A stretch of 64,000 bases of DNA, taken from contig JAADGM010000085.1 of NCBI GenBank assembly GCA_013152375.1, positions 4,358 to 68,357 of the forward strand, in the 5' to 3' direction. Both the position numbers and the translations under genes were made by a program. Shown here in pieces: positions 7,882 through 41,830 of the stretch. Positions within the stretch are counted from its first letter, which is position 1. Every line of letters begins with the position of its first letter. This DNA is from FCB group bacterium (lineage in GTDB: Bacteria; Fidelibacterota; Marinisomatia; SCGC-AAA003-L08; JACNLC01). Under the pieces are notes generated by a model. It searched no databases, was not told the DNA's origin, and saw only the letters and a list, made by a program, of their open reading frames with translations.

Positions 7882-10800
7882 ATGTCTGAATTCGTTCATT
7901 TACACAATCATACTGACTTTTCATTATTGGATGCCGCACAATCCGTCGAGATGATGTGCCGCCGGCTGGACGATCTGAAAATGGACACCATTGCCGTTAC
8001 GGATCACGGTAATCTCTTCGCCATGCTGCCCTTTTACAAAACCGCCCGTAAAAAAGGCATTAAGCCCATCCTCGGCTGCGAGGTCTATGTCGCCGCCGGA
8101 AGCCGCCATGACCGGAAGCAGGTGCTGCAGCAGGGAGTGAAAAAATGGGGTTACCACCATCTGGTGCTCATCGTTCAGAACACAACCGGTTACCGAAATC
8201 TCATGAAGCTGGTTTCCCGGGGCTATTTGGAAGGATTTTACTATCGACCCCGGGTTGACAAAGAATTGCTGCGGCAGCTTAATGAAGGGCTGATCGCCTC
8301 CTCCGCCTGCCTGGCCGGCGAGGTGACAGGACATGCCGCCAGGGGGGATTATGAAGCTGCTAAAAAGGCTGCCCTTGAGTACGCCGAGATTTTTCCGGGT
8401 CGGTTTTACCTGGAGCTGCAGAATCACACAATCCCCGAGGAACTGGCCTCCCATGAAATCCTGAAGAAATTATCTCAGGAACTGGGGCTCCCGCTGCTTG
8501 CCACCAACGATAATCATTATGCAATGGAAGAACACTGGGAGGCCCATGACGCCCTGGTGTGCATCGGGAAAAATGCCGACATGAGTGATCCCCAGCGCCA
8601 GCGCTACGTTCCCCGGCAATTCTATATCAAGTCTGCAGATGAGATGGCTCAGCTTTTTAAAGATACACCTCAGGCGCTTGAAAATTCTCTGGCCATCGCA
8701 GAGCAGTGTGAAGTGGAGATACCCATGGGTACTCTGCATCTGCCCAAATTTCAAATTCCCGCCGAAGCCGGGACGCAGGATCCGGATGAATATCTGCGGA
8801 TGATCTGTGAACGGGGGCTGGCAGAACGCTATAAGCCCCTGACGCCTCAGATCCGACAGCGCCTGGACTATGAGCTGCAGGTCATCCGAAAAATGGGCTT
8901 TGCGGGGTATTTCCTGATCACCATGGATTTCGTACGCTATGCAAAAGACCATGCGATTCCGGTGGGTCCCGGACGAGGGTCCGCCGCCGGCTCTATCGTG
9001 GCCTATGTCACCGGGATCACCACGGTGGATCCCATCCAGTATGATCTGCTGTTTGAGCGTTTTCTCAATCCCGAGAGAGTCTCCATGCCGGACATCGACA
9101 TCGATTTCTGCATGGAAGGCCGGGGCAGAGTGATCGAATACATTAAGAAACGCTATGGAGAGGATTCCGTCTGTCAGATCATTACCTTCGGCAAGATGAA
9201 AGCCAAATCCGTCGTACGGGATGTGGGTCGCGTACTGGGGATGTCCTATGGCGAGGTGGACCGGATTGCAAAACTGATCCCCAATGAATTGAAAATGACC
9301 CTGTCCAAAGCATCAGAAGTCAGCAAAGAATTGGCGGAAGTTCCCAAAATTGACGAAAAACACCGGAAACTCCTGGAATATTCTCATGTTCTGGAGGGGC
9401 TCCACCGGCATGCTTCCACCCATGCGGCAGGAGTCCTGGTCGCCCCGGGGCCGCTGATGGATTATATTCCGTTGTACAAACCGGCCGGTTCCAATGATAT
9501 TACCACTCAGATCGAAATGGATTCACTTGAGGAGATGGGTCTGTTGAAAATGGATTTTCTGGGGCTCCGTAATTTGACCGTCATCGATAAAACCGTGCGC
9601 ATGATCCGGAAGAACCACGGTGTCGAGGTGGATATCGAGAACCTGAACCTTAACGATGAAAAAACCTTTGAGTTGTTTGCAAAAGGACACACGGTCGGTG
9701 TCTTTCAATTCGAATCCGGCGGCATGCGGGAATACCTGAAGCAGCTGCAGCCCACTTCAATTCATGATCTCATCGCCATGAATGCACTCTACCGGCCGGG
9801 GCCCATGAAAAATATCCCCGAATTCATCGCCCGCAAACATGGACGGCAGAAGATTTCCTATCTGCTGCCTCAGCTGGAGGACGTACTGAAAGAAACCTAC
9901 GGGATCATCGTTTATCAGGAACAGGTGATGCAGATCGCTTCACTGGTTGGGGGCTTTACATTGGCACAGGCCGATATGATGCGGCGGGTCATGAGTAAAA
10001 AGAAGGCCAAAGAGATGGCAGCCTTCAAAGTCGATTTTGTGGCAGGCGCCGAAAAACAAAATATCCCCCAAAAGAAAGCCGTTGAAATATTTGACCTCCT
10101 TGAAAGATTTGCCGAGTACGGGTTTAACAAAAGCCATTCTACGGCTTACGCCATTGTGGCCTACGAAACGGCCTGGCTGAAAGTACATTATCCTGCTGAA
10201 TTTATGGCCGCGAATATGAATTCGGATTCAGACACGCTGGATCGGGTCGTCACCCTTATAAATGAAGCGCGGGATATGGGAATCGAGGTACTTGCCCCGG
10301 ATGTGAATACTTCCTTTGCGGAGTTTGAAGCCACCAAAGAGGGTAAAATTGCCTATGGATTTTCGGCCACTAAAAATATTGGTCATAAAGCCGCCGAAGA
10401 GTTGGTTCGGGCCAGAACTGAAAAGGGTCCCTATCGATCGATTTTCGACCTTGTGCGATTCGGCAATCCCCAGATCATTAACCGCAAGGTGCTGGAAAGC
10501 CTCGTATTATCGGGTGCCTGTGACGGTCTGGAGGGTCACCGGGCCCAGCAGTTTGCCGCCCTTGACAGCCTTCTGCAGTTTGGACAGTCCATGCATGCCG
10601 AAAAAAATAAGGACCAGGTAGATCTGTTTGGGAACAGCATCAGCGAGGTAGTTACCGAACCTCCTTTGCCGGATGTGGAAGCATGGTCAGAGGCGGAATG
10701 TCTGGCCCGTGAAAAGGAACTCATCGGATTTTACCTGTCGGGGAACCCCCTCGATAAATTTGATGAGGACCTGCGGGAATTCAACAATGTTGATCTGGGG

Positions 10801-16942: not shown

Positions 16943-17209
16943 ATGGGAATAATTGTAAAACGATTGACGGAGGAAGAGATCGAGAAAAAAGGCATCCGGG
17001 ACTGGGCGCTCTGGGAATGCGGGATATCAGAATTTGACTGGGAATATGATGAAAAGGAATTCTGTCTGATCCTCGCAGGAGAGGCGGATATTTCGACGGA
17101 ACAGGGTGTGACCCATATTTCCGCAGGGGATTATGTGGAATTTCCCCGGGGGCTGAAATGCCGCTGGACCGTACGAAAACCCATCCGCAAACATTATAAC
17201 TTTGGATGA
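16943..17209 (+). CDS. Small cupin-domain protein (DUF861/EutQ-like)
   Basis: 88 aa. The pattern W.C..S.F.W.Y...E.C..L.G...I....G.......GD.V.FP.G..C.W.V is typical of single-domain cupins. Confidence 0.6.
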   Translation: MGIIVKRLTEEEIEKKGIRDWALWECGISEFDWEYDEKEFCLILAGEADISTEQGVTHISAGDYVEFPRGLKCRWTVRKPIRKHYNFG

Positions 17210-17303
17210 ATCAATTGAAACCCCGTAGGACTTCCTCGTTCCGGTCCCGCAGAGCATTTCGGCGTCACGGAACATCCCCGTTTTGCCATCGTAGCACAGC
17301 CCC

Positions 17304-18473
17304 ATGAAAAAAATACTTTTCCTTTTCGTATTCATGATACCCCTGCTGGTCTCCGGGGAAAATAAGGCTCCCATCATTCTGTTCCACGGATTTATGGGTT
17401 GGGGGAGAGATGAAATGAATAATTATTACTATTGGGGAGGAACATTCGACCTTGAGACCTGGCTGAAAGTGCGGGGATTTGAGGTTTACACGGTTTCCCT
17501 GGGTCCCGTATCTTCAAACTGGGATCGCGCCATTGAGGCATTTTATGAGATAAAGGGTGGACAGCTCGATTATGGGATAGCGCATTCCGAAGAATACAAC
17601 CTGATCCGCAAACCGGAGGGCAGGCAGTTTGCGGGGCTGTATCCTGAATGGGATGCGGAGCATCCAATCCATATCATTGCCCACAGCATGGGGGGGCTCA
17701 CGGCCCGCAAGCTGGAGCAGTTACTGCAGACGCAGTTCCCCGGGGAAGACAGCCCCCTGCTCTCTTCGACCCTTGACGGCTGGATTAAAAGTATTACGAC
17801 CATTTCCACACCTCATAACGGCACCACCCTCGCACCGATGATCGAAGACTTTTTCCCATTTCTGCAGAAACTTGCGCCGGTGTTTGCCGGGCTGACAGAG
17901 GATACGTTTATCGAAAATCTGTATGATTTTGATCTGGATCAATGGGGCCTTGAGCGCCGGGAAGATGAAAATCTGACCCGATATTTAAAACGCCTGCGGG
18001 CATCACCCCTGAGCCGGTCACATAATTTTTGCATCTGGGATTTATCGGTGGAAGGCGCAAAAGAGCTCAATTCCACCTATCACACCGATCCCAACACCTA
18101 TTACTTTTCTTATGCGACCTATGCTACACGGCGGCAGAAGCACAGCCCGAAGCATATACCCGATCAGGCCATGACCTGGAACCTCTGGTCCTCCGGTTTT
18201 GCCATGGGGAGATCTTCACTGATGGATTCTACCTGGTACGAAAATGATGGTATTGTGAATACAATTTCCATGGATGCCCCTCGCTCGGGTGACCATGGTC
18301 CCGAGCCGGAAAAAATCTGGGATGGCGTTCCGCAAAAAGGAGTCTGGCAGTTCATGGGAAAATTGCATTACGACCATCACAAACTGGTCGGACACGATCA
18401 CCGGAAAAAGGATGAAGCGGTCATGAGAAAATTCTACTATAACCTCTGCGAAATGCTCTATGAACTCGATTGA
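17304..18473 (+). CDS. Secreted triacylglycerol lipase (alpha/beta hydrolase, Geobacillus/Staphylococcus-like subfamily)
   Basis: Signal peptide. PIILFHGFMGWGRDEM..YYWGG oxyanion region and AHSMGG nucleophile elbow. Confidence 0.75.
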   Translation: MKKILFLFVFMIPLLVSGENKAPIILFHGFMGWGRDEMNNYYYWGGTFDLETWLKVRGFEVYTVSLGPVSSNWDRAIEAFYEIKGGQLDYGIAHSEEYNLIRKPEGRQFAGLYPEWDAEHPIHIIAHSMGGLTARKLEQLLQTQFPGEDSPLLSSTLDGWIKSITTISTPHNGTTLAPMIEDFFPFLQKLAPVFAGLTEDTFIENLYDFDLDQWGLERREDENLTRYLKRLRASPLSRSHNFCIWDLSVEGAKELNSTYHTDPNTYYFSYATYATRRQKHSPKHIPDQAMTWNLWSSGFAMGRSSLMDSTWYENDGIVNTISMDAPRSGDHGPEPEKIWDGVPQKGVWQFMGKLHYDHHKLVGHDHRKKDEAVMRKFYYNLCEMLYELD

Positions 18474-19113
18474 AGCGATTCTTTTCGATCTCGACGGTGT
18501 CGTGATTGATTCCGAGCCCCTGTATCAGAAAGGCGAAATCCGTCTTTTCCGTGAATATGGTGTGGAAATTCCTGAAGATGACTGGCTGCTTTTCCGCGGC
18601 TCAACGGAAAAATTATTTTATCAGATGGCCCGGGACCGATATCACCTTCAAGCCGGGACAGAGGACCTCAGAAAAAAAGGGCGGGGTTATGTGCTGGAAG
18701 AATTTGCAAAGCATCTGGATTACATGCCCGGATTTACGAACCTGATGAAGTCAATCGACGGGCAATTCAAAGTAGGTCTCGTAACAGCCACTCCGGCCGA
18801 CATGTTTGAGTGGGTCAATTTAAGGCTTAATCTGCGTAAATTTTTTCCCCACATTCTCACCGGAGACATGACGAGCAGAGGCAAACCCCATCCGGACCCA
18901 TACCTGAAAATGATGAATATCCTGGGCGTTCTGCCGCAAAACTGTATCGTGATCGAAGATTCCCACCATGGGATCACCTCGGGATTACGCTCCGGGGCAA
19001 GGGTCATCGCGTTAACCGGTTCCGCCCCTTATGAGAATATGCCGGATGTCCATGCTATAGTGACAAATTTATCCGAAATCACGCCGGATCTTATCAGGTC
19101 AATTTCCGCTTGA
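18460..19113 (+). CDS. HAD-superfamily phosphatase (beta-phosphoglucomutase-like subfamily)
   Basis: LFDLDGVVIDSEPLY motif I, a KPHPDPY motif, and a C-terminal EDS..G motif. Confidence 0.75.
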   Translation: MNSIEAILFDLDGVVIDSEPLYQKGEIRLFREYGVEIPEDDWLLFRGSTEKLFYQMARDRYHLQAGTEDLRKKGRGYVLEEFAKHLDYMPGFTNLMKSIDGQFKVGLVTATPADMFEWVNLRLNLRKFFPHILTGDMTSRGKPHPDPYLKMMNILGVLPQNCIVIEDSHHGITSGLRSGARVIALTGSAPYENMPDVHAIVTNLSEITPDLIRSISA

Positions 19114-19817
19114 AACAAACCTTCCTCACGCTTGGGATTCTTGTGGTTGCAATCCCGGTTTTTATCATATGCGGGGTTACCCTGCTGCTGATCTCAATTC
19201 TTCTGCCGGGCCGCCTGCATTCAGCGGCACGAATCGCAGCCAGGGTCATTCTGGTTTCCATGGGAGTATCAGTCCGGATAAAGGGAAAACTTCCCCCTGA
19301 CGGTCAATATATCCTCATGGCCAATCACAGTTCATTTATAGATCCCTTGCTGATGCCCCTGGTTCTGAGGGACAAATATACGGGTATTGTGGCAGATTTC
19401 AATTTCAGATACCCTCTTTGGGGCACACTTCTCAAACGCTTCCGGGTCATTCGCATCGACCGTAAAAACCCGGATCAGGCCATTGAGAATATCAAAGCCG
19501 CCGAACAATTGATGAAGATGAAAGGTTATAACATCGCCATTTTACCGGAGGGCACCCGAACCCTGACCGGGAAAATGGGACCCTTGAAAAAAGGAGGGTT
19601 TTATCTAGCCGTCAACACCGGTGTTCCCATATTACCCGTCGGGATTGAGGGCGCCTATAAGTTCAAACCCAAAAATCGATTTGCCTTTCATCCCGGAGTG
19701 GTAACACTCAATATCGGAACACTGATCCCTGTGGAAAAAAACAACACCCGGGAAATACCCGCTTTGCTGCAAAAGACCGGTACAGAATTAAAAAAATTGT
19801 CCGGTGAGAAGATTTGA
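19110..19817 (+). CDS. plsC: 1-acyl-sn-glycerol-3-phosphate acyltransferase
   Basis: N-terminal TM helix. HX4D acyltransferase motif (NHSSFIDP) and PEGTR motif (LPEGTRT). Confidence 0.8.
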   Translation: MKQTFLTLGILVVAIPVFIICGVTLLLISILLPGRLHSAARIAARVILVSMGVSVRIKGKLPPDGQYILMANHSSFIDPLLMPLVLRDKYTGIVADFNFRYPLWGTLLKRFRVIRIDRKNPDQAIENIKAAEQLMKMKGYNIAILPEGTRTLTGKMGPLKKGGFYLAVNTGVPILPVGIEGAYKFKPKNRFAFHPGVVTLNIGTLIPVEKNNTREIPALLQKTGTELKKLSGEKI

Positions 19818-19839
19818 TCCTGACTTAAAATCGGTGATT

Positions 19840-20055
19840 TTATCTTGCAATTATCAAAACAAACCTGCTTTCATCTTCCCGGGTAAAGGACGGTTTTAAC
19901 CCCCGCTTTTTTAATTCCTGTGCCACACTTTTAAGAGAATCGATATCCCCTAAAATCACTTTTATTGTTTCTGATTCCCCCAGGCTATCCAGGGCTTCGG
20001 AGGCCTTGATTTTCGATAAAGGGCACACGTAATTCGATAAGTCGTATTCTTTCAC
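19840..20055 (-). CDS. TusA/SirA-like sulfurtransferase
   Basis: 71 aa. Active-site Cys context (YVCPLSKIK), correct size, and last gene of the sulfur operon. Confidence 0.7.
   Translation of the reverse strand: MKEYDLSNYVCPLSKIKASEALDSLGESETIKVILGDIDSLKSVAQELKKRGLKPSFTREDESRFVLIIAR
19844..19883. repeat. Direct repeat copy 1 (40 nt, the 3' end of the tusA-like gene)
   Basis: cttgcaattatcaaaacaaacctgctttcatcttcccggg. It matches 24182..24221 at 38 of 40 positions in the same orientation. Confidence 0.9.
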
Positions 20056-20067
20056 TATTTTTCCCAG

Positions 20068-21039
20068 TCATTTTTTATTGATGATATCTTTGTAAAAGCT
20101 TGCATATTTAAATGCACCATCAGGTGATATCACAACAGCCAAACCCTTGTGCGTCTTGGCATATTGCTGCGCCACGCAGAGTATTGCTCCCGTAGTTGGT
20201 CCAACCGGAATCCCGTCTTTCCGGGCCAATTCCATTGCCGCTGAATATGCATCTTCATCCGACACCTGTACACTTTCATCAATAACCGATCGATCCAGAA
20301 TTTTCGGAATCAGATCTTCACTTAATCCGGTAATTCGCTTCATTCCCGGTAATTTATGATCCATCGATTCCGGTTCAATTCCAATAATCTTGATATCGGG
20401 GTTTTGCTCCTTTAGATATTTCCCAATGCCGGTAATTGTCCCGCAGGTACCATATCCAGCGAAGAAATAATCTATTTTCCCTTGTGTCTGTTTCCATATT
20501 TCCGGGCCGGTTGTTTGGTAATGAGTTTGGATATTCAGATGATTCTCATATTGATTCGGACTGACATATGAATCTTTGGTGGCCGGACTATGAATTAGTG
20601 CATTCACTAATCCCCGGGCTCCTTCAGCCGGAAATAACGGACAAAGTGCATCATCGACTTCCATCACGTTAGCCCCGAGGAATTTTAGAAGAATTTTCTT
20701 TTCCTCGGGAATTTTTTCCGGCACGGCAATTTCTATGGGAATTCCCAGAGCATTCGCAATACATGTCAGGGCAATCCCGGTATTACCCGAAGACGGTTCT
20801 ACAACTGTTTTTTCTCCGATTTCCAGCGATGTTAACATCATATAAGCGATTCTATCTTTAATGGAACCGAAAGGATTATAGCTTTCCAATTTCAGAAATA
20901 TTTGAAAATCCTGATTTGGATTTGATCGGTTAACCTTCACCAATGGTGTTGGATTATCCCGGCCGGCTATCAGCTGAGTAATATCGGTGTAGACCCTTAA
21001 GTCGTGATTTGATTTAGTATTGCTTTGGTTTTTACTCAT
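20068..21039 (-). CDS. PLP-dependent cysteine synthase family protein (CysK/CysM/O-phosphoserine sulfhydrylase-like)
   Basis: PLP-lysine motif (NPFGSIKDR), SSGNTG, and the GxGTxGT phosphate loop (AGYGTCGTITG). Confidence 0.8.
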   Translation of the reverse strand: MSKNQSNTKSNHDLRVYTDITQLIAGRDNPTPLVKVNRSNPNQDFQIFLKLESYNPFGSIKDRIAYMMLTSLEIGEKTVVEPSSGNTGIALTCIANALGIPIEIAVPEKIPEEKKILLKFLGANVMEVDDALCPLFPAEGARGLVNALIHSPATKDSYVSPNQYENHLNIQTHYQTTGPEIWKQTQGKIDYFFAGYGTCGTITGIGKYLKEQNPDIKIIGIEPESMDHKLPGMKRITGLSEDLIPKILDRSVIDESVQVSDEDAYSAAMELARKDGIPVGPTTGAILCVAQQYAKTHKGLAVVISPDGAFKYASFYKDIINKK

Positions 21040-21054
21040 GAGAATCCCTGTTCG

Positions 21055-21801
21055 TCATTTCAATAATTGTGTATGAATACCGCACTCTCCGCCGCATTTG
21101 CTGGTGTTTTGCCACCTACCATCACGCTCAAGTATTCCGCCGATTTGCGAGCAGGGTTGGCATCCCAATGACCTGTAGCCCAGGGCGTACCAGGGATGTG
21201 ATTTTATTCCCCGGGTAGCAATATATCTCCAAATTTCTGCTTCGGTGAAAGTGAGAATCGGATTTATTTTTATCAACCCGCCCTTATCTTCAATTTCCCG
21301 GTAATCAGCCCGGGTTCTGCCTTCCGTGTTGCGTAAACCACAGATCCATGCATCCAGCGATCTTACCGCTGCTTTTGTTGGTTCCACCTTCAGTAAATGG
21401 CAGCACTCATCAGGATCGACTTCATAAATCTCCCGTCCTGTTTCTGCTTTAATCATGAGACTTTTTTGAATGAATTCGTCCGGCGGGAGCAATATTATTT
21501 TTAATTCATCATCCCGGAGTTCTTCGGGAATATGCTCCGCTACTAAGTATACGGTCGTATTCAGATTCCATTCGGCATTCAGTAACTTCAAATATTTGTA
21601 AGTCTCGTGTGGTTTATAGATTGTCATTACCGCAAAGACCTCTATATCGGGAACCACCTCTTTGGCCAAATGAACGGTCACCATGCTATCTTTCCCAAAT
21701 GAACATGCTACAGCTACCCGGGGATAGTTGGTTATGGCATACTCAACCAGTTCTTGGGCATGTTTTATTTTTTCTTCCATATTGAATAGTTCCTTTTTCA
21801 A
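21055..21801 (-). CDS. Phosphoadenosine phosphosulfate (PAPS/APS) reductase family protein
   Basis: PP-loop-like N-terminus (VACSFGKDSMV) and a C-terminal ECGIH redox motif (CGGECGIHTQ). There is a 4-nt overlap with the upstream gene. Confidence 0.8.
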   Translation of the reverse strand: MKKELFNMEEKIKHAQELVEYAITNYPRVAVACSFGKDSMVTVHLAKEVVPDIEVFAVMTIYKPHETYKYLKLLNAEWNLNTTVYLVAEHIPEELRDDELKIILLPPDEFIQKSLMIKAETGREIYEVDPDECCHLLKVEPTKAAVRSLDAWICGLRNTEGRTRADYREIEDKGGLIKINPILTFTEAEIWRYIATRGIKSHPWYALGYRSLGCQPCSQIGGILERDGRWQNTSKCGGECGIHTQLLK

Positions 21802-23372
21802 AAAGTTAGTTCCCGACGGAATGAGTCGAGAGTTAGGTTATTTTTAAAATTTTCAAATCCTTCCTGATCAATGATATCAGAAATATTGGTATTTTTTTCT
21901 TTCATAATTAACAGACATTTTTCAGTGATTGAAAGCGCTTCCTCTTCTGATAGGAATTCAGCAATGACTCCACCGAGCCGAGTATCTTGGCCTTCCTTTC
22001 CCCCTGCCAGTATCGTGAACCCTTTTTGTTTTTCAATAATGGCATCGAAAGGACAAATAGAGAGACACTGTCCACAGTGTTTACACATATCGTCATCGAT
22101 TACAACAACGCTTCCGTTCATTGCCATGGCGTTTACTTTACACACCGGTACACAGATTTCACAGCCAACACAGTTTTTGTCATCGATCCGCGGTTTTACT
22201 GCTCCAAGGAAACCCAGATCATTAATGTGCGAAATTCCACATGAATTCGGGCATCCCGAACCGGAGATTTTAATATTCCGGTTATTAAGGTTTAGTGCGG
22301 CAATTTTCCCATCGATCTTTTTGAGCAAAGCTTGATTATTCACAACACTTTCAGTACAATATTCTCCAAAGCAGGCTTGAATATTATCTATTCCCTGATC
22401 GAGTGTTTGTAATTTGACTTCGATGAATTCCCTTTTTACCTTACACAGGGATTTTTTATCCACGCCGGGAATTTCAGGAGAGCCACGGACTCCGAAGTGG
22501 ATAATTCCTTGTCCGTATTGTTCCGCAACGTCTGCAATTTTTCTTAACTGAGGTGATGTGACCTCTCCACAGGTAGCCCGGATTTTCAATATGATTGTAT
22601 TTGGCTCTACCCCGTTTATTTTATTTTTGCAGTTAATAATTGTGGAAGCCGATCCCGTCTGTAAATTCCGGTTAAGTTTTTGCCGGACGTCTTCCCTGCC
22701 AAGCCGTTTGATGAGATCAGCGCTCCGGTCTCCCGGATTCCCTTCACTTTTTATAAGATCAAAATAGTTTTGGACAAACCGGACAGCCTGATCGTCAGAG
22801 AGATATTCCGCCATCTTTACGCCGATAGACGGTTTTAAACCCAGCCGTCCACCTACGTAGACATCGTAATAGGCCGTCAATCCGTTTGTACCCAGACCGA
22901 TGAAACTGAGATCGTTCAGCACGCGCGAGATGATACAGTCTTTTTTACAACCGGCCACCCCAATTTTAATCTTGTGAAGTACGGTGTCGCGGAAAAAGAA
23001 TTCTAATTTTTCGGCCAAAGCAATAGAATTAGTCACTGCATCGGCGCAGACCGTATCATCATAACAAACATTGATGTTTCGTACCCTGGGACCGCATCGG
23101 TCTAATTCCAACTCTACATCGGCCAGTTCCTTTTTAACATCTTCAACATCGTTCCAGTGTATATGCGGAATAATCGGAATTTGCCTCGAACTGAATAAGA
23201 GAAAACTCCTGGCATATTTGTCGGTAATATCAGCCAGCGTACGAAGCTGTTTTGAATTCAAATTACAGCAAGCGGTTTTAACCCAGATAGAAAACAAATC
23301 TTTTCCTTTGAGTTTTACAATACCGCTCTTTCTCAGCGTTTCAATATTTTCTTTTGATTTCCGTCCATTCAT
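21798..23372 (-). CDS. Nitrite/sulfite-reductase-family protein with an inserted 2x[4Fe-4S] ferredoxin domain (fused pseudo-dimeric, small assimilatory/Dsr-like type)
   Basis: Two tandem SiR-like halves. Only the second half carries the siroheme-cluster cysteines (ACFGEYC ... GCPNSC). Those are followed by CVGCEICVPVC and CKHCGQCLSICP ferredoxin motifs. Confidence 0.65.
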   Translation of the reverse strand: MNGRKSKENIETLRKSGIVKLKGKDLFSIWVKTACCNLNSKQLRTLADITDKYARSFLLFSSRQIPIIPHIHWNDVEDVKKELADVELELDRCGPRVRNINVCYDDTVCADAVTNSIALAEKLEFFFRDTVLHKIKIGVAGCKKDCIISRVLNDLSFIGLGTNGLTAYYDVYVGGRLGLKPSIGVKMAEYLSDDQAVRFVQNYFDLIKSEGNPGDRSADLIKRLGREDVRQKLNRNLQTGSASTIINCKNKINGVEPNTIILKIRATCGEVTSPQLRKIADVAEQYGQGIIHFGVRGSPEIPGVDKKSLCKVKREFIEVKLQTLDQGIDNIQACFGEYCTESVVNNQALLKKIDGKIAALNLNNRNIKISGSGCPNSCGISHINDLGFLGAVKPRIDDKNCVGCEICVPVCKVNAMAMNGSVVVIDDDMCKHCGQCLSICPFDAIIEKQKGFTILAGGKEGQDTRLGGVIAEFLSEEEALSITEKCLLIMKEKNTNISDIIDQEGFENFKNNLTLDSFRRELTF

Positions 23373-23409
23373 TTTGTTATTTTTCTTTCTTTGTTATTTA
23401 GTTACTCAT

Positions 23410-23448
23410 AAAAAAAACCCCTTTACTTATACCGGTAAAGGGGTTTTT
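23410..23448 (-). terminator. Intrinsic terminator / attenuator hairpin A, 37 nt upstream of the sulfite-reductase ATG
   Basis: Minus-strand RNA: AAAAACCCCUUUAC-CGGUAUAA-GUAAAGGGG followed by U8. The stem is perfect. Confidence 0.7.
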
Positions 23449-23472
23449 AAATTGTGTTTTATTCAAATAATC

Positions 23473-23550
23473 CTACACGGGTATAAATCCTTCCATATTG
23501 ATGGAGCAACAACAGATATTGCAGATACAAACAGCATCATTCGTTTTCAT
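23473..23550 (-). CDS. Cys-cluster mini-ORF A (25 codons), candidate leader peptide. An in-frame extension to the ATG at 23640 would give 58 aa.
   Basis: My hand translation is MKTNDAVCICNICCCSINMEGFIPV*. It is below the 60-aa track cutoff. Five of nine consecutive codons are Cys, and terminator A follows. Confidence 0.45.
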   Translation of the reverse strand: MKTNDAVCICNICCCSINMEGFIPV

Positions 23551-23730
23551 TTCGTGACGAATTTTGCCGGTAAGGACTATTGGCCGTCCCGGGACTGACG
23601 CGCCGGCGTTAAAACCGGTTGGTTTTTTATTATCGATCATTGGTCTAATTTTTTCATTTTAAATTTCCATTTTCCGGGAATGTCAATCAATGTTCCTCTT
23701 TTTAATTTTCCCCACCATTTATTGTTGTTC

Positions 23731-23770
23731 AAAAAAAAAGCCCTTTTACTTATGCTGGTAAAAGGGCTTA
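23731..23770 (-). terminator. Intrinsic terminator / attenuator hairpin B (paralogue of A)
   Basis: Minus-strand RNA: GCCCUUUUAC-CAGCAUAA-GUAAAAGGGC followed by U9. The loop and stem are nearly identical to hairpin A. Confidence 0.7.
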
Positions 23771-23791
23771 AATCTTTTAAATCGGATATAC

Positions 23792-23857
23792 CTATACCGG
23801 CAGAAAATTCCTTTCATACATACAACAAGCGCACCGATTTTGTATTTTGATCATCAT
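23792..23857 (-). CDS. Cys-cluster mini-ORF B (21 codons), candidate leader peptide
   Basis: My hand translation is MMIKIQNRCACCMYERNFLPV*. An in-frame TAA lies two codons upstream, so it cannot be longer. It shares the CC...M.E.(N)F(I/L)PV* tail with mini-ORF A. Confidence 0.45.
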   Translation of the reverse strand: MMIKIQNRCACCMYERNFLPV

Positions 23858-24181
23858 TTCTTACATCGTTTAAAAATTAACGTCAAAAGTTAAGACGATG
23901 TCATTTGTTTCCACAACAGTAATAATATATATTTTTTCCCATAAATTAAGACTTGGCCGACTATGAAGCCGGGATTCCTGCAGATAAGAGATACCATAAT
24001 ATGTTGCCGACGTTCAATTATTGTTAATCCAGTATGTAATTTATAAGGATAATAGAAACTGCCGGAACCTCAAGTGGACAAAAGCCGCATAACGTCAGCA
24101 TTCGGTAGGACAGATTGCTGCCAGAATGATTCAAATTTCCCAGGGAGTAACCATAGGGACGGAGGGAATCCCGCTAAGGTC

Positions 24182-24221
24182 CTTGCAATTATAAAAACAA
24201 ACCTGCTTTCATCTTCACGGG
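24182..24221. repeat. Direct repeat copy 2 (remnant of a tusA-like 3' end)
   Basis: cttgcaattataaaaacaaacctgctttcatcttcacggg. On the minus strand it reads ...REDESRFVFIIAR, against REDESRFVLIIAR* in the intact gene. An in-frame TGA lies just upstream, so it is not a gene. Confidence 0.9.
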
Positions 24222-24242
24222 TCTGTCAGTCAGAAGAAAAAA

Positions 24243-24854
24243 TCAGGTTGATTTCTTGAACAGGACAGATCGGATGCCTCTCTCCTCTCCCCGGCGGATT
24301 TTCAGAATATTGGGAAGATGCTTGAAGAAACCGATCAGGGATAGCGCAACGGATATCACGATGATCAAACGGGAATAGTGGAAATAGTACAACAATCCGG
24401 GCAGCGCAGCATAGAGGGTCACCGAACCAACGGCGATATAATCTGAAACCAGCGAGAAAATCATCATGGAGATCGCCAGGATAAGACCGATGCGCCAGTC
24501 AAACAGCAGAAAGGCTCCCAGCAGACTGGCAACCCCCTTACCGCCCCTGAAACCGAGAAACACCGGGAAGATATGCCCGACCACCGCACCGCAACCGGCC
24601 AGAAAGGGCAGAATTTCCGGACCATCAACCAGATTTCTGATCAGCACAACTGCAAAGGCCGCTTTAAAAAAATCCATCCCAAAAGTCAGAATACCCCACT
24701 TCATTCCCAATACCATTGTCACATTGGAGGCGCCGGCGTTAGTGGTGCCGTGTTCACGAATGTCAATCCGGTGGATGAACTTACCAATGAAGTATGATGT
24801 TTGAAAACAACCCAGCAGATAGCCGGCAAGCAGAGCGGTGATGTAAATATTCAT
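24243..24854 (-). CDS. plsY: Glycerol-3-phosphate acyltransferase PlsY
   Basis: 203 aa and polytopic. Conserved blocks: G.TNAGA.N region (HGTTNAGASNV) and FLGFRGGKGVA. Confidence 0.85.
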   Translation of the reverse strand: MNIYITALLAGYLLGCFQTSYFIGKFIHRIDIREHGTTNAGASNVTMVLGMKWGILTFGMDFFKAAFAVVLIRNLVDGPEILPFLAGCGAVVGHIFPVFLGFRGGKGVASLLGAFLLFDWRIGLILAISMMIFSLVSDYIAVGSVTLYAALPGLLYYFHYSRLIIVISVALSLIGFFKHLPNILKIRRGEERGIRSVLFKKST

Positions 24855-31914: not shown

Positions 31915-32343
31915 TTGGTTATTGAGAACCAGTATAAATTGCGCAAAGTGAAAACAATAATTTCCATATTATCTCTGGCGATTGCCCTGAACCTCGGGTC
32001 GCAGATTACAGTCTCCTGTAATATGCCAACCTGTGCAATGCAGGATGAAATCACCTGCAGCTGCAACAACGTTGCCACTGATATGCAAATGGACGGCTGC
32101 TGTCAGCACGACATGGCCTCCAAGACGGATTCAAAAACATCTTCCCCGAAATGCAATCAAAGCAGAATTGACGGTGTTTTCGTTCCCACTTTTACCATTA
32201 CTCATGTTGATACCTACATTGGTTTCCTCACTGAAATTTCACTGTTGTCCATCGATGGACACAGTCGTATGTTCACACCACAGCCAACGAATACAACCCA
32301 CTTTAAACCCGATAAATACCTGAATCTTCCGCTCCTGATCTAA
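31915..32343 (+). CDS. Small Cys/Met-rich membrane-anchored or secreted protein, unknown function
   Basis: Hydrophobic N-terminus (KTIISILSLAIALNL), then SCNMPTCAMQDEITCSCNNVATDMQMDGCCQHDM. The track start is a TTG. An in-frame GTG at 31948 (MKTIISIL...) looks more natural. Confidence 0.4.
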   Translation: MVIENQYKLRKVKTIISILSLAIALNLGSQITVSCNMPTCAMQDEITCSCNNVATDMQMDGCCQHDMASKTDSKTSSPKCNQSRIDGVFVPTFTITHVDTYIGFLTEISLLSIDGHSRMFTPQPTNTTHFKPDKYLNLPLLI

Positions 32344-40518: not shown

Positions 40519-40905
40519 ATGAAATATTATTTCAAAAATACAGTGGAAAAAGATTTTGATGATACGGTAAACCGGGTTACGGAAGAACTAAAAAAAGAGG
40601 GTTTTGGTGTGTTAACTGAGATCAATGTCAAAAACACCCTTAAGGAAAAATTGGATGTAGGATTTCGGAATTATGTTATTTTGGGAGCCTGTAATCCGCC
40701 CTTTGCCTATAAGGCCCTGCAGGCAGACGATAAGATCGGCATGCTGCTGCCCTGCAATGTTATCGTGCAGGAGTTGGAGGATGGATTGACCGAGGTTGCA
40801 GCGATAGACCCGGCTACGTCCATGAGTATGATTGAAAATGCCGAGCTTGCTGAAATTGCAGATCGAGTCGGCGAAAAATTAAAATCTGTTGTTGACAGAT
40901 TATAA
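40519..40905 (+). CDS. DUF302 domain protein
   Basis: ILGACNPPFAYKAL...IGMLLPCNVIVQE is the DUF302 signature. 128 aa. Confidence 0.75.
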   Translation: MKYYFKNTVEKDFDDTVNRVTEELKKEGFGVLTEINVKNTLKEKLDVGFRNYVILGACNPPFAYKALQADDKIGMLLPCNVIVQELEDGLTEVAAIDPATSMSMIENAELAEIADRVGEKLKSVVDRL

Positions 40906-40942
40906 ACTTCATTAACCAAATACCAAATTAAAAGGAAAGGAA

Positions 40943-41830
40943 ATGGAAATGAAAACAAGAAAAGCCATAACCATCATAGGAATGTCACTGAGTTTATTGG
41001 CGGCTTTCGCCTGGGCCGGGGACGGTCACGGAAAGATGATGGGGAAAAACCAACAGGGAATGAAAATGGAAGGTGAAGGACATGCAATGATAGATTTGCC
41101 CTCCATGCAGTGTGATATGTGTAAAAACAATATCGAAACAGGTCTGTCAAAAATTCCCGGTATCAAATCAGTTGATGTTAATGTTGAGAAAAAAACGGGT
41201 CATGTAAACTACGATCCGGCAGTGATTGACGAAAGTGAGATCGAAGTTGCCATCAACAAACTGGGATACTGGGCCAATGACAAACCCGCAGACCCGAATT
41301 CTTACGATAACCTGATGGGTTGTTGTCAGATGCCGGAAGAAGAGTATAATCAAATGATGAAAAGTTCAAAAAAGATGACCATGCCTCATGACAACATGAT
41401 GAAGAAAATGATGGATCGTTCCGGGATGCAGAAAATGGAACATGAGAATATGAAGATGAGAAACCAGGACGGCATGAAGATGGGCAGCATGAAAATGGAT
41501 AATATGAAAATGGGAGACATGAAGATGGGAAATATGGACATGAAGATGGGTGATTCTTCCGGAAAGACTTCAATGACGATGATCTCACTGCCCACAGTAC
41601 AGTGTGGAAGTTGTCAGGCTAGAATCGAGTCAAATTTATCAAAAATTGACGGGATCGTTGAAGTAAAGGTTGATATAGACCGTAAAATGGGACATGTTGT
41701 CTATGACCCTGAAAAGCTCACTGTTAAATCCATTGAGAATGTAATTGCCTCCATTGGATATCAGGCGAATGACATACCGGCGGACAGCAAAGCTTACGAC
41801 AATCTGCCGGGCTGCTGCAAAGTCCCCTGA
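40943..41830 (+). CDS. Periplasmic twin-HMA (heavy-metal-associated) domain protein with a Met-rich linker
   Basis: Signal peptide. Two HMA modules carry CxxC motifs (MQCDMCKNNIE, VQCGSCQARIE). Each is followed by YDNL.GCC. The linker is MKMRNQDGMKMGSMKMDNMKMGDMKMGNMDMKMGD. Confidence 0.75.
   Translation: MEMKTRKAITIIGMSLSLLAAFAWAGDGHGKMMGKNQQGMKMEGEGHAMIDLPSMQCDMCKNNIETGLSKIPGIKSVDVNVEKKTGHVNYDPAVIDESEIEVAINKLGYWANDKPADPNSYDNLMGCCQMPEEEYNQMMKSSKKMTMPHDNMMKKMMDRSGMQKMEHENMKMRNQDGMKMGSMKMDNMKMGDMKMGNMDMKMGDSSGKTSMTMISLPTVQCGSCQARIESNLSKIDGIVEVKVDIDRKMGHVVYDPEKLTVKSIENVIASIGYQANDIPADSKAYDNLPGCCKVP

Follow-up and report, generated by a model that had tools for sequence, protein, structure and literature searches.

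A horizontally acquired cysteine operon between plsC and plsY and a probable recombination scar at its edge

In a 64,000-nt stretch of a metagenome contig from the Marinimicrobia/FCB group (the window; all coordinates are window positions), four genes of sulfur and cysteine metabolism lie on the minus strand between the convergent genes plsC and plsY (Table 1). Two tandem leader/terminator units precede them, and the last gene, tusA, ends in a sequence that recurs on the far side of the block, beside plsY. A first-pass annotation had called this block an insertion between plsC and plsY and had read the repeat as a scar left when DNA enters the 3′ end of a gene by a site-specific or Campbell-type event. 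The comparisons below show that the block was indeed inserted and that the cassette it carries was acquired horizontally. The cassette was found at plsC–plsY in one genome only.

An operon between plsC and plsY

Two sets of loci were compared with the window. The cassette is present in L161, L162/L163/L174, L168, L169, L170, L171, L172, L173 and L175, and the site between plsC and plsY is empty in the lineages L001, L164/L165 and L166/L167. A scan of species-representative genomes with PlsY gave one close relative, L001, a Neomarinimicrobiota metagenome-assembled genome whose PlsY is 84% identical; the other two empty-site lineages were reached through PlsC homologues. A metagenome scan with PlsY returned no relative above 41% identity and none closer than L001, and exact-sequence look-ups of the window's PlsY, TusA and PlsC matched no record. 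L002, labelled Clostridia and with 50% PlsY identity, has an unrelated neighbourhood and was excluded from the comparison.

Judged from gene families and context, the 4.1-kb unit running from 23938 to 19827 would be a cysteine-regulated operon, complete in itself, that serves the reductive half of sulfur assimilation. Its CysH-type reductase, which passes the equivalog cutoff of NCBIfam NF002537 (165 bits vs. 154), would convert adenylyl sulfate or phosphoadenylyl sulfate, (P)APS, to sulfite. The sulfite reductase (SiR)-like protein with its ferredoxin domain would then take sulfite to sulfide, and the CysK/M-like enzyme, with TusA as a plausible sulfur carrier, would complete the path to cysteine. 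The SiR-like protein matches Pfam NIR_SIR and NIR_SIR_ferr, each in two stretches, as well as Fer4. Its best NCBIfam match, AsrC, scores 152 bits, under the cutoff of 324, and the CysK/M-like enzyme scores 258 bits against NCBIfam cysKM, under the cutoff of 344, so that both are family-level assignments and not equivalogs. The SiR-like protein has homologues with 88% and 85% identity, and relatives of tusA with 90–91% identity also end the cassette at other loci. In the window, the tusA stop codon and that of the convergent plsC are 22 nt apart. The first-pass annotation had taken everything between the two repeat copies for one minus-strand unit. This holds for the leaders and terminators, the SiR-like gene, the PAPS_reduct gene, the PALP/CysK-like gene and tusA; it does not hold for positions 23939–24181, which are not cassette and include a plus-strand plsC fragment.

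Table 1. Features of the plsC–plsY interval, in order of window position
Feature	Positions	Strand	Remarks
plsC, 1-acyl-sn-glycerol-3-phosphate acyltransferase	19110..19817	+	Pfam Acyltransferase 1.2e-26; resident flank, convergent with the cassette
Right spacer remnant	19818..19826		AAGTCAGG plus 1 nt, minus strand; between the plsC stop and the last cassette-homologous base, 19827
Conserved cysteine cassette	19827..23938	-	4112 nt: promoter-like block, two leader/terminator units, four genes, 13-nt tail
tusA-like sulfur carrier gene, 71 aa	19840..20055	-	Pfam TusA PF01206, 2.6e-09, 37 bits vs. cutoff 28.6
Repeat copy R	19844..19884	-	last 13 tusA codons; cassette-internal; ends 1 nt before the stop codon
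CysK/CysM-family pyridoxal phosphate enzyme, 323 aa	20068..21039	-	Pfam PALP 2.7e-68
CysH-type phosphoadenylyl-sulfate reductase, 248 aa	21055..21801	-	Pfam PAPS_reduct 1.1e-36
Sulfite-reductase-family protein, 524 aa	21798..23372	-	C-terminal 2x[4Fe-4S] ferredoxin domain
Intrinsic terminator, leader unit 1	23413..23448	-	13-bp stem, then U-run; fold z = -3.47
Leader open reading frame (ORF) 1, 55 aa	23473..23640	-	ends ...CICNICCCSINMEGFIPV (stop); internal ATG gives a 25-aa form
Intrinsic terminator, leader unit 2	23738..23769	-	12-bp stem, then U-run; fold z = -2.90; paralogue of terminator 1
Leader ORF 2, 21 aa	23792..23857	-	MMIKIQNRCACCMYERNFLPV (stop); C-x-C-C-x-C kept in L161, L162
Promoter/operator-like block	23870..23938	-	A-rich stretch, then TATTACTGTTGTGnnAACAAAT...TCGTCTTAAT...; left cassette edge
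U	23939..24092		154 nt, GC 0.39; neither cassette nor spacer DNA
plsC′ pseudogene fragment	24093..24181	+	89 nt = plsC nt 103-196 (PlsC residues 35-66); same orientation as plsC
Repeat copy L, orphan tusA′	24182..24222	-	tusA 3′ end; joined to plsC′ at 24181/24182
Left spacer remnant	24223..24242		TTTTTTCTTCTGACTGACAG on the minus strand; between the plsY stop and copy L; 20 nt
plsY, glycerol-3-phosphate acyltransferase	24243..24854	-	Pfam G3P_acyltransf 2.5e-42; resident flank, intact

Transcription of the operon would be gated by its two tandem leader ORFs, which are rich in Cys codons and each followed by an intrinsic terminator. When Cys-tRNA is scarce, a ribosome would stall in the leader and termination would be relieved, as in ribosome-mediated attenuation. 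The two paralogous units are conserved in every cassette copy examined (window 23405–23938; L161:3169-3736; L162:2859-3426; L168:4303-5042). On the minus strand, upstream of the SiR-like gene, leader ORF 1 contains the Cys-codon run ...VCICNICCCSINMEGFIPV; L161 and L162 preserve this ORF with its Cys codons, as a called gene of 55 aa and one of 60 aa, and the leader Cys codons are also retained, along with those of L162, in the L163 locus. Terminator 1, in which a terminator scan that allows G-T pairs counts 15 pairs, is kept in L161, L162, L168 and L174. Minimum-free-energy folds display the terminators and small upstream hairpins and no clear competing antiterminator.

Conservation of the downstream leader ORF, as 55–60 codons, includes its N-terminal part (...GFN...VLTGKIRHEMKMND..CIC..CCC...). 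The C-termini of the two leaders are related, being GFIPV in ORF 1 and FLPV (window) or FMLV (L161, L162) in ORF 2, each directly before the stop codon. The conserved reading frame and the related C-termini hint at a role beyond counting codons, such as that of an arrest peptide or a small protein. Further upstream, the block at 23870–23938 has invariant columns in six loci, and the sequence directly upstream of it is unrelated among them. The block also has an inverted-repeat-like core, TTGTGnnAACAA, between the A-rich stretch and a TAATATTCG-like element, and could be an FCB-type promoter with an operator.

Empty sites, composition and other contexts

The plsC–plsY interval could be aligned with relatives, and the site proved empty in three lineages, none of which has tusA there. 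The two genes are separated by 22 nt in L001, 61 nt in L164/L165 and 27 nt in L166/L167, with no genes between; in L001, plsY ends at 10645 and a 235-aa plsC ends at 10668 on the opposite strand. The window and the empty sites otherwise share the order Lip_C-HAD-plsC-plsY-dapF-GNAT-EamA. PlsC of the window is 80% identical to its L001 orthologue across all 235 aa, 77% identical to that of L164/L165 and 66% identical to that of L166/L167. PlsY ends ...VLFKKST in the window and ...VLFK(K/N)S in its orthologues, so that plsY ends alike in all lineages and was not truncated by the insertion. The identity values give the lineage order (L166,(window,(L001,L164))), and with this order parsimony favours one gain, on the window branch. 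The insertion between plsC and plsY that the first-pass annotation had proposed is borne out by these empty sites, by the foreign composition of the cassette and by its presence in other contexts.

The spacers and flanks of the relatives have further peculiarities. In L001 the plsY frame runs 11 codons into the spacer (L001:10607-10645; ...NSPGKKIKPSNDRQ, then a stop), and in L164 the plsY stop lies at the usual place and is followed by noncoding sequence homologous to that extension. L166/L167 have a Peptidase_M48 gene between the cupin and Lip_C genes (L166:6938-8185), at a place where the window has only a 94-nt gap (17209–17304).

The guanine-plus-cytosine (GC) content of the cassette is 0.410, which makes it the lowest-GC 4.1-kb stretch of the window. 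Its three large genes have GC 0.42–0.44 and third-position GC (GC3) 0.39–0.45, with GC3 z-scores of -2.75 to -4.2, against a backbone of 50 ORFs with GC 0.498 ± 0.028 and GC3 0.556 ± 0.040. These statistics agree with the earlier impression, from spot counts, that the unit is richer in AT than its flanks. In every host the cassette has a GC of 0.40–0.41, while the flanks have 0.33–0.445 in the other hosts, the window backbone has 0.50 and the window's relatives have 0.475–0.484. Since the composition of the cassette is like that of the lower-GC hosts, it is foreign in the window. Other window ORFs of low GC, at 40519–41830 and 31915–32343 (GC 0.416–0.438; one GC3 z = -3.0), may also be foreign or atypical.

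At least four other genomic neighbourhoods hold the cassette, at 81–91% nucleotide identity (blastn). Upstream of it lie ribH and an aminotransferase gene in L161, and FabA, YchF and a 207-aa gene in L162/L163/L174. L168 has a CSD gene upstream and a MerT/CopZ/MerR cluster downstream, and in L171 YicC, gmk and rpoZ lie downstream. The left border coincides with window positions 23936–23938 in all contexts (L161:3169, L162:2859, L168:4303, L169:751, L174:2830), and the right border varies, corresponding to window 19827 in L168, L171 and L173 and to 19832 in L172 and L175. A likeness between the 300 nt upstream of the cassette in the window and the upstream regions of L161 and L162, suggested by MAFFT, was judged by local BLAST to be chance.

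About 190 nt downstream of tusA are common to L168, L171 and L173 (L168:8583-8790, L171:742-950, L173:644-830). After this tail L168 and L171 diverge, into the mercury/copper-type cluster and YicC-gmk-rpoZ, respectively, and the right end is longer there than in the window. Several contigs are broken at the cassette: L169 and L170 end 6 nt past the tusA stop, and L161, L162 and L163 end inside cysK. Assembly breaks in or near the cassette are to be expected if one community holds it in several contexts. The copy in L174 may be decaying, as its cysH lacks about 270 nt (L174:4980-5420 vs. window 21104–21372) and encodes a product of 146 aa instead of 241–248.

The repeat and the junction beside plsY

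The repeat noticed earlier as 40 nt with 38 matches is real and measures 41 nt, with 39 of 41 matching, between 19844–19884 (copy R) and 24182–24222 (copy L). With up to three mismatches allowed, the 41-mer occurs at just these two sites in the 64 kb, and in 100 dinucleotide-preserving shuffles it had no match. On the minus strand copy L translates as D-stop-QTREDESRFVFIIARTLAGF...; the in-frame TGA lies two codons upstream and the gene body is absent, as expected of the relic for which copy L had been taken. Its tusA stop codon has been lost or replaced, leaving the frame open for 37 codons more, and the region of this orphan copy has no significant RNA structure (fold z = -0.18). Both copies carry the window-type variants ACC... 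and ...GCAAG, where L168-type tusA has AAC... and ...GCAGA. Copy L would therefore come from a cassette of the same sub-lineage as copy R, as is expected if both came from one incoming molecule.

The two copies stand differently to the cassette borders. Homology with other cassettes runs past copy R and through the stop codon into the next 13–16 nt (TAAAATCACYGRTTYT), which are common to L168, L171, L172, L173 and L175, and copy R is therefore internal to the cassette. Copy L stands 243 nt beyond the conserved left border (23938). Between the window and L168-type cassettes, identity over the final 60 nt of tusA is 97%, compared with about 89% for the whole cassette. No upstream second copy of the tusA end occurs in L168 or L169, read across the whole cassette from left border to tusA stop, or in L174, a whole-length cassette copy apart from its gap in cysH. 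An apparent breakpoint inside the repeat region of L174 is probably a diverged TusA C-terminus; the contig stops 23 nt further on. A viral-contig scan with the tusA 3′ 33-mer gave no match.

The 304 nt next to plsY (23939–24242), where copy L lies, are not cassette and, apart from the 41-mer, are unmatched by the cassette loci and the empty-site spacers. Directly against the start of copy L, at 24181, ends a fragment of plsC (plsC′), for which plsC is the top match in the whole window, with a local alignment score of 50 against 22.4 ± 2.6 (maximum 30) in shuffles. A plsC profile recovers it by nhmmer with an E-value of 2.7e-6, with no extension of the match further left, and blastx matches 12 of 25 residues without gaps. 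A TAA stands directly before the fragment, at 24090–24092. Identity of plsC′ to plsC is 66% for the window, 64% for L001, 63% for L164 and 49% for L166; over the same segment the plsC genes of the window, L001 and L164 are 71–80% identical to each other, and that of the outgroup L166 is 54–62% identical to them. With a GC of 0.52, plsC′ points to a donor plsC from a genome of window-clade-like composition and not from the low-GC hosts. The remaining 154 nt, U, have no significant match in the window or any fetched locus, their top local-alignment score of 34 being equal to the shuffle maximum. Beside other cassette copies, nothing like this debris was recovered with the plsC profile, with PlsC proteins or with the tusA end as query. 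At the outer edges of the insertion, the spacer remnants TTTTTTCTTCTGACTGACAG and AAGTCAGG hold the complementary hexamers CTGACT and AGTCAG, which would fit, as a speculation, an ancestral spacer that formed a hairpin and took up the insertion in its loop.

In this debris tusA′ and plsC′ stand tail to tail, like the intact tusA–plsC junction across the cassette, with about 540 nt missing between them, and we infer that together they are a collapsed second copy of that junction. The two pieces have diverged to very different degrees, with 2 differences in 41 nt between tusA′ and tusA and 30 in 89 nt between plsC′ and plsC (Fisher p = 3e-4). Between lineages, cassettes are 89–91% identical and plsC genes about 64–77% identical. 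The contrast would fit one junction from a different lineage; a recent duplication of the window's own junction would fit it less well.

On balance, we think it probable, if far from certain, that a cysteine operon was acquired into the plsC–plsY spacer and that the 41-mer is a piece of a composite recombination scar, not an attachment site. From plsY inward, the scar would consist of the 20-nt spacer remnant, the 41 nt of tusA′, the 89 nt of plsC′ and the 154 nt of U. The incoming DNA, or an early intermediate, would have carried a tusA–plsC junction as well as the cassette. Candidates for such an intermediate are a circle or a longer-than-unit-length tandem from a relative in which the cassette already lay beside plsC, and a transient tandem duplication. 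Integration into a spacer of 20–60 nt would have proceeded by illegitimate or homology-assisted recombination, and later deletions would have trimmed the redundant DNA to stubs of 41 and 89 nt. Several points weigh against this history. It requires at least three events, one insertion and two that formed junctions, and no intermediate was seen in any genome. U lacks an explanation, and plsC′, which matches the window's own PlsC best, could be a remnant of the lineage's plsC, old and without connection to these events. The two window-specific variants that copy L shares with copy R are accounted for as well or better by local copying. The arrangement comes from a single genome, on a metagenome contig, and the pathway roles of the SiR-like and CysK-like proteins follow from family and gene context, with both proteins under the equivalog cutoffs.

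The main rival, possible in our view but rather unlikely, is a local event after a clean insertion, in which a tusA patch of 41 nt was copied to a place some 4.3 kb upstream, next to older and unrelated junk made up of plsC′ and U. Template switching during replication (a templated or filler insertion) or an imprecisely collapsed tandem duplication could have done this. Apart from the shared variants and the mere two differences in 41 nt, the much greater divergence of plsC′, which would allow the pieces to differ in age, agrees with such an event, as do the best match of plsC′ to the window's own PlsC and the two-base identities at both patch junctions (...CAG|ACC, ...AAG|GACC). The patch would, however, have had to land by coincidence exactly against the plsC piece, in an orientation that mimics the real tusA–plsC junction, and the three empty-site relatives have neither plsC′ nor U in their spacers. 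Because the tusA 3′ end is highly conserved between lineages, the match of 39 in 41 is no proof of a recent local copy. The fallback of the first-pass annotation, that the repeat is only a local duplication, thus comes closer to the truth than an attachment site but is incomplete, since copy L is joined to plsC′. A bolder proposal is that the cassette, from its own promoter to the end of tusA, is a mobile unit without a recombinase. It would move among Marinimicrobia-type genomes as a circle, or as a rolling-circle product of more than unit length, and settle in the short spacers of convergent genes. We consider this doubtful. If it were true, the tusA′–plsC′ fusion would be the fossil of an intermediate excised with a piece of the donor's adjacent plsC, and the conserved tusA 3′ end would be a preferred break or joining point.

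The explanation first offered, an integrative element that entered the 3′ end of tusA by a site-specific or Campbell-type event, leaving the 41-mers as attL and attR and its recombinase lost or supplied in trans, now appears very unlikely. Several points speak for it: the 3′ end of a gene is present twice, as a direct repeat with the insert roughly between the copies, empty sites exist, the cassette occurs in several contexts, contigs break at or near the tusA stop codon, and the last 60 nt of tusA are conserved beyond the rest of the cassette. The borders, the target, the other copies and the machinery nevertheless all go against it. The empty sites have neither tusA nor any sequence like the 41-mer; in permutation tests, neither the 41-mer nor the 74-nt tusA tail has an attB-like match in the empty-site spacers (p = 0.04–0.9). 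A 9-mer, ACCCGGGAA, in the L001 plsY tail, considered together with GTTTGTT in the L001 spacer as attB, was rejected, with p = 0.04 once and 0.24–0.9 otherwise. The DNA past copy R is still cassette, where a crossover site would be followed by chromosomal DNA, and a position of copy L 243 nt outside the left border, fused to plsC′, is not predicted by a simple attachment site. For integration into a resident tusA the geometry is reversed, with the orphan upstream and the full gene downstream, and the upstream tusA-end copy is missing from L168, L169 and L174. As the first-pass annotation had said, no integrase or transposase gene is present, either in the insert or within about 5–8 kb on either side. 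The four metabolic genes, the leaders and the scar take up the whole of the 4.4 kb. The ORFs flanking the insert between 14.3 and 32.3 kb belong to housekeeping families, and the flanks are collinear with L166 and L001. Scans for tRNA and tmRNA genes gave no classical integration target, and Rfam gave no match above threshold in the 17–27.5 kb region. Highly improbable, too, is a cassette that was ancestral at plsC–plsY and was deleted in the relatives, the repeat being unrelated to its acquisition. Deletions of nonessential operons are common, and the sample is of four lineages only. Under the lineage order given above, however, at least two independent and nearly scar-free losses would be needed. 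The GC3 of the cassette, 2.75–4.2 standard deviations below the backbone, matches lower-GC hosts, and genomes with flanks more than 10 GC points away from the window carry the cassette at 89–91% identity. A chimeric join of the cassette at the repeat during assembly is scarcely credible. The source is a metagenome contig (the window matches one of 73 kb from JGI), the cassette has several natural contexts and other assemblies break around it, but exact identity between the repeat copies extends over 23 nt at most, not enough to confuse an assembler run with ordinary k-mer sizes. The insert also sits precisely between intact genes that are adjacent in relatives, with both junctions unlike those of other contexts, and misassembly would not produce a diverged plsC fragment.

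Comparison with known systems

The locus provides a natural pair of occupied and empty sites in which an uncultured marine lineage would have gained cysteine synthesis from oxidized sulfur in one step, with a small operon that would bring along both a promoter and a switch responsive to cysteine. Models of sulfur and carbon cycling in the ocean depend in part on whether streamlined marine bacteria can assimilate sulfate or sulfite or need reduced sulfur, and patchy possession of a transferable cassette would explain differences between strains. The acquisition itself is ordinary; the scar is the instructive part. A direct repeat that brackets an island is not necessarily a pair of attachment sites, and other copies and empty sites can reveal it as debris fused to a fragment of a neighbouring gene.

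Integrative elements at gene 3′ ends include the islands and phages that target tRNA and tmRNA genes and the tycheposons of Prochlorococcus. The cassette resembles them in having a direct repeat of a gene 3′ end on both sides of nutrient-assimilation cargo and in having empty sites. It differs in that it has no integrase, its target site has no copy of the gene, its repeats lie off the borders and other cassette copies are without the repeat. Integron cassettes are also units without a recombinase of their own that occur in different contexts, like the promoter-to-end unit described here. This unit, however, has a promoter-like block of its own and a context-dependent right border, with no integron integrase or attI, and no attC-like imperfect palindrome was seen after tusA when the aligned downstream sequence was read by eye. 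Homology-facilitated illegitimate recombination (HFIR) has been described for natural transformation in Acinetobacter and Streptococcus. Islets formed by HFIR are alike in that a compositionally atypical block is inserted between conserved genes without a recombinase, relatives have empty sites and the junctions hold short odd fragments instead of defined attachment sites. Two features set the cassette apart: anchor homology is not demonstrable, plsC′ being about 65% identical to the resident plsC, and the scar includes a second copy of sequence from the opposite end of the cassette, which simple HFIR does not predict.

The regulatory leaders have the clearest counterparts. Cys-codon upstream ORFs act as attenuators in the leaders of actinobacterial cys and cbs genes (PMC1262725). 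In mycobacteria, polycysteine small ORFs are leaderless and have their effect on translation (bioRxiv 10.1101/834739), and the Rhodobacterales cysS motif is an upstream ORF followed by an intrinsic terminator (PMC8632094). In all of these groups, as in the cassette (C-x-C-C, CICNICCC), short ORFs rich in Cys codons stand before genes of cysteine metabolism, and like the Rhodobacterales motif the cassette ORFs each precede an intrinsic terminator. The cassette differs from these known systems in its two paralogous tandem units, in a leader ORF of 55 codons with a conserved N-terminal part, in the absence of a visible antiterminator pairing from the folds and in its Marinimicrobia/FCB-group host. 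Tandem Cys-codon attenuators of this kind would extend to the FCB group a principle known from Actinobacteria and Alphaproteobacteria.

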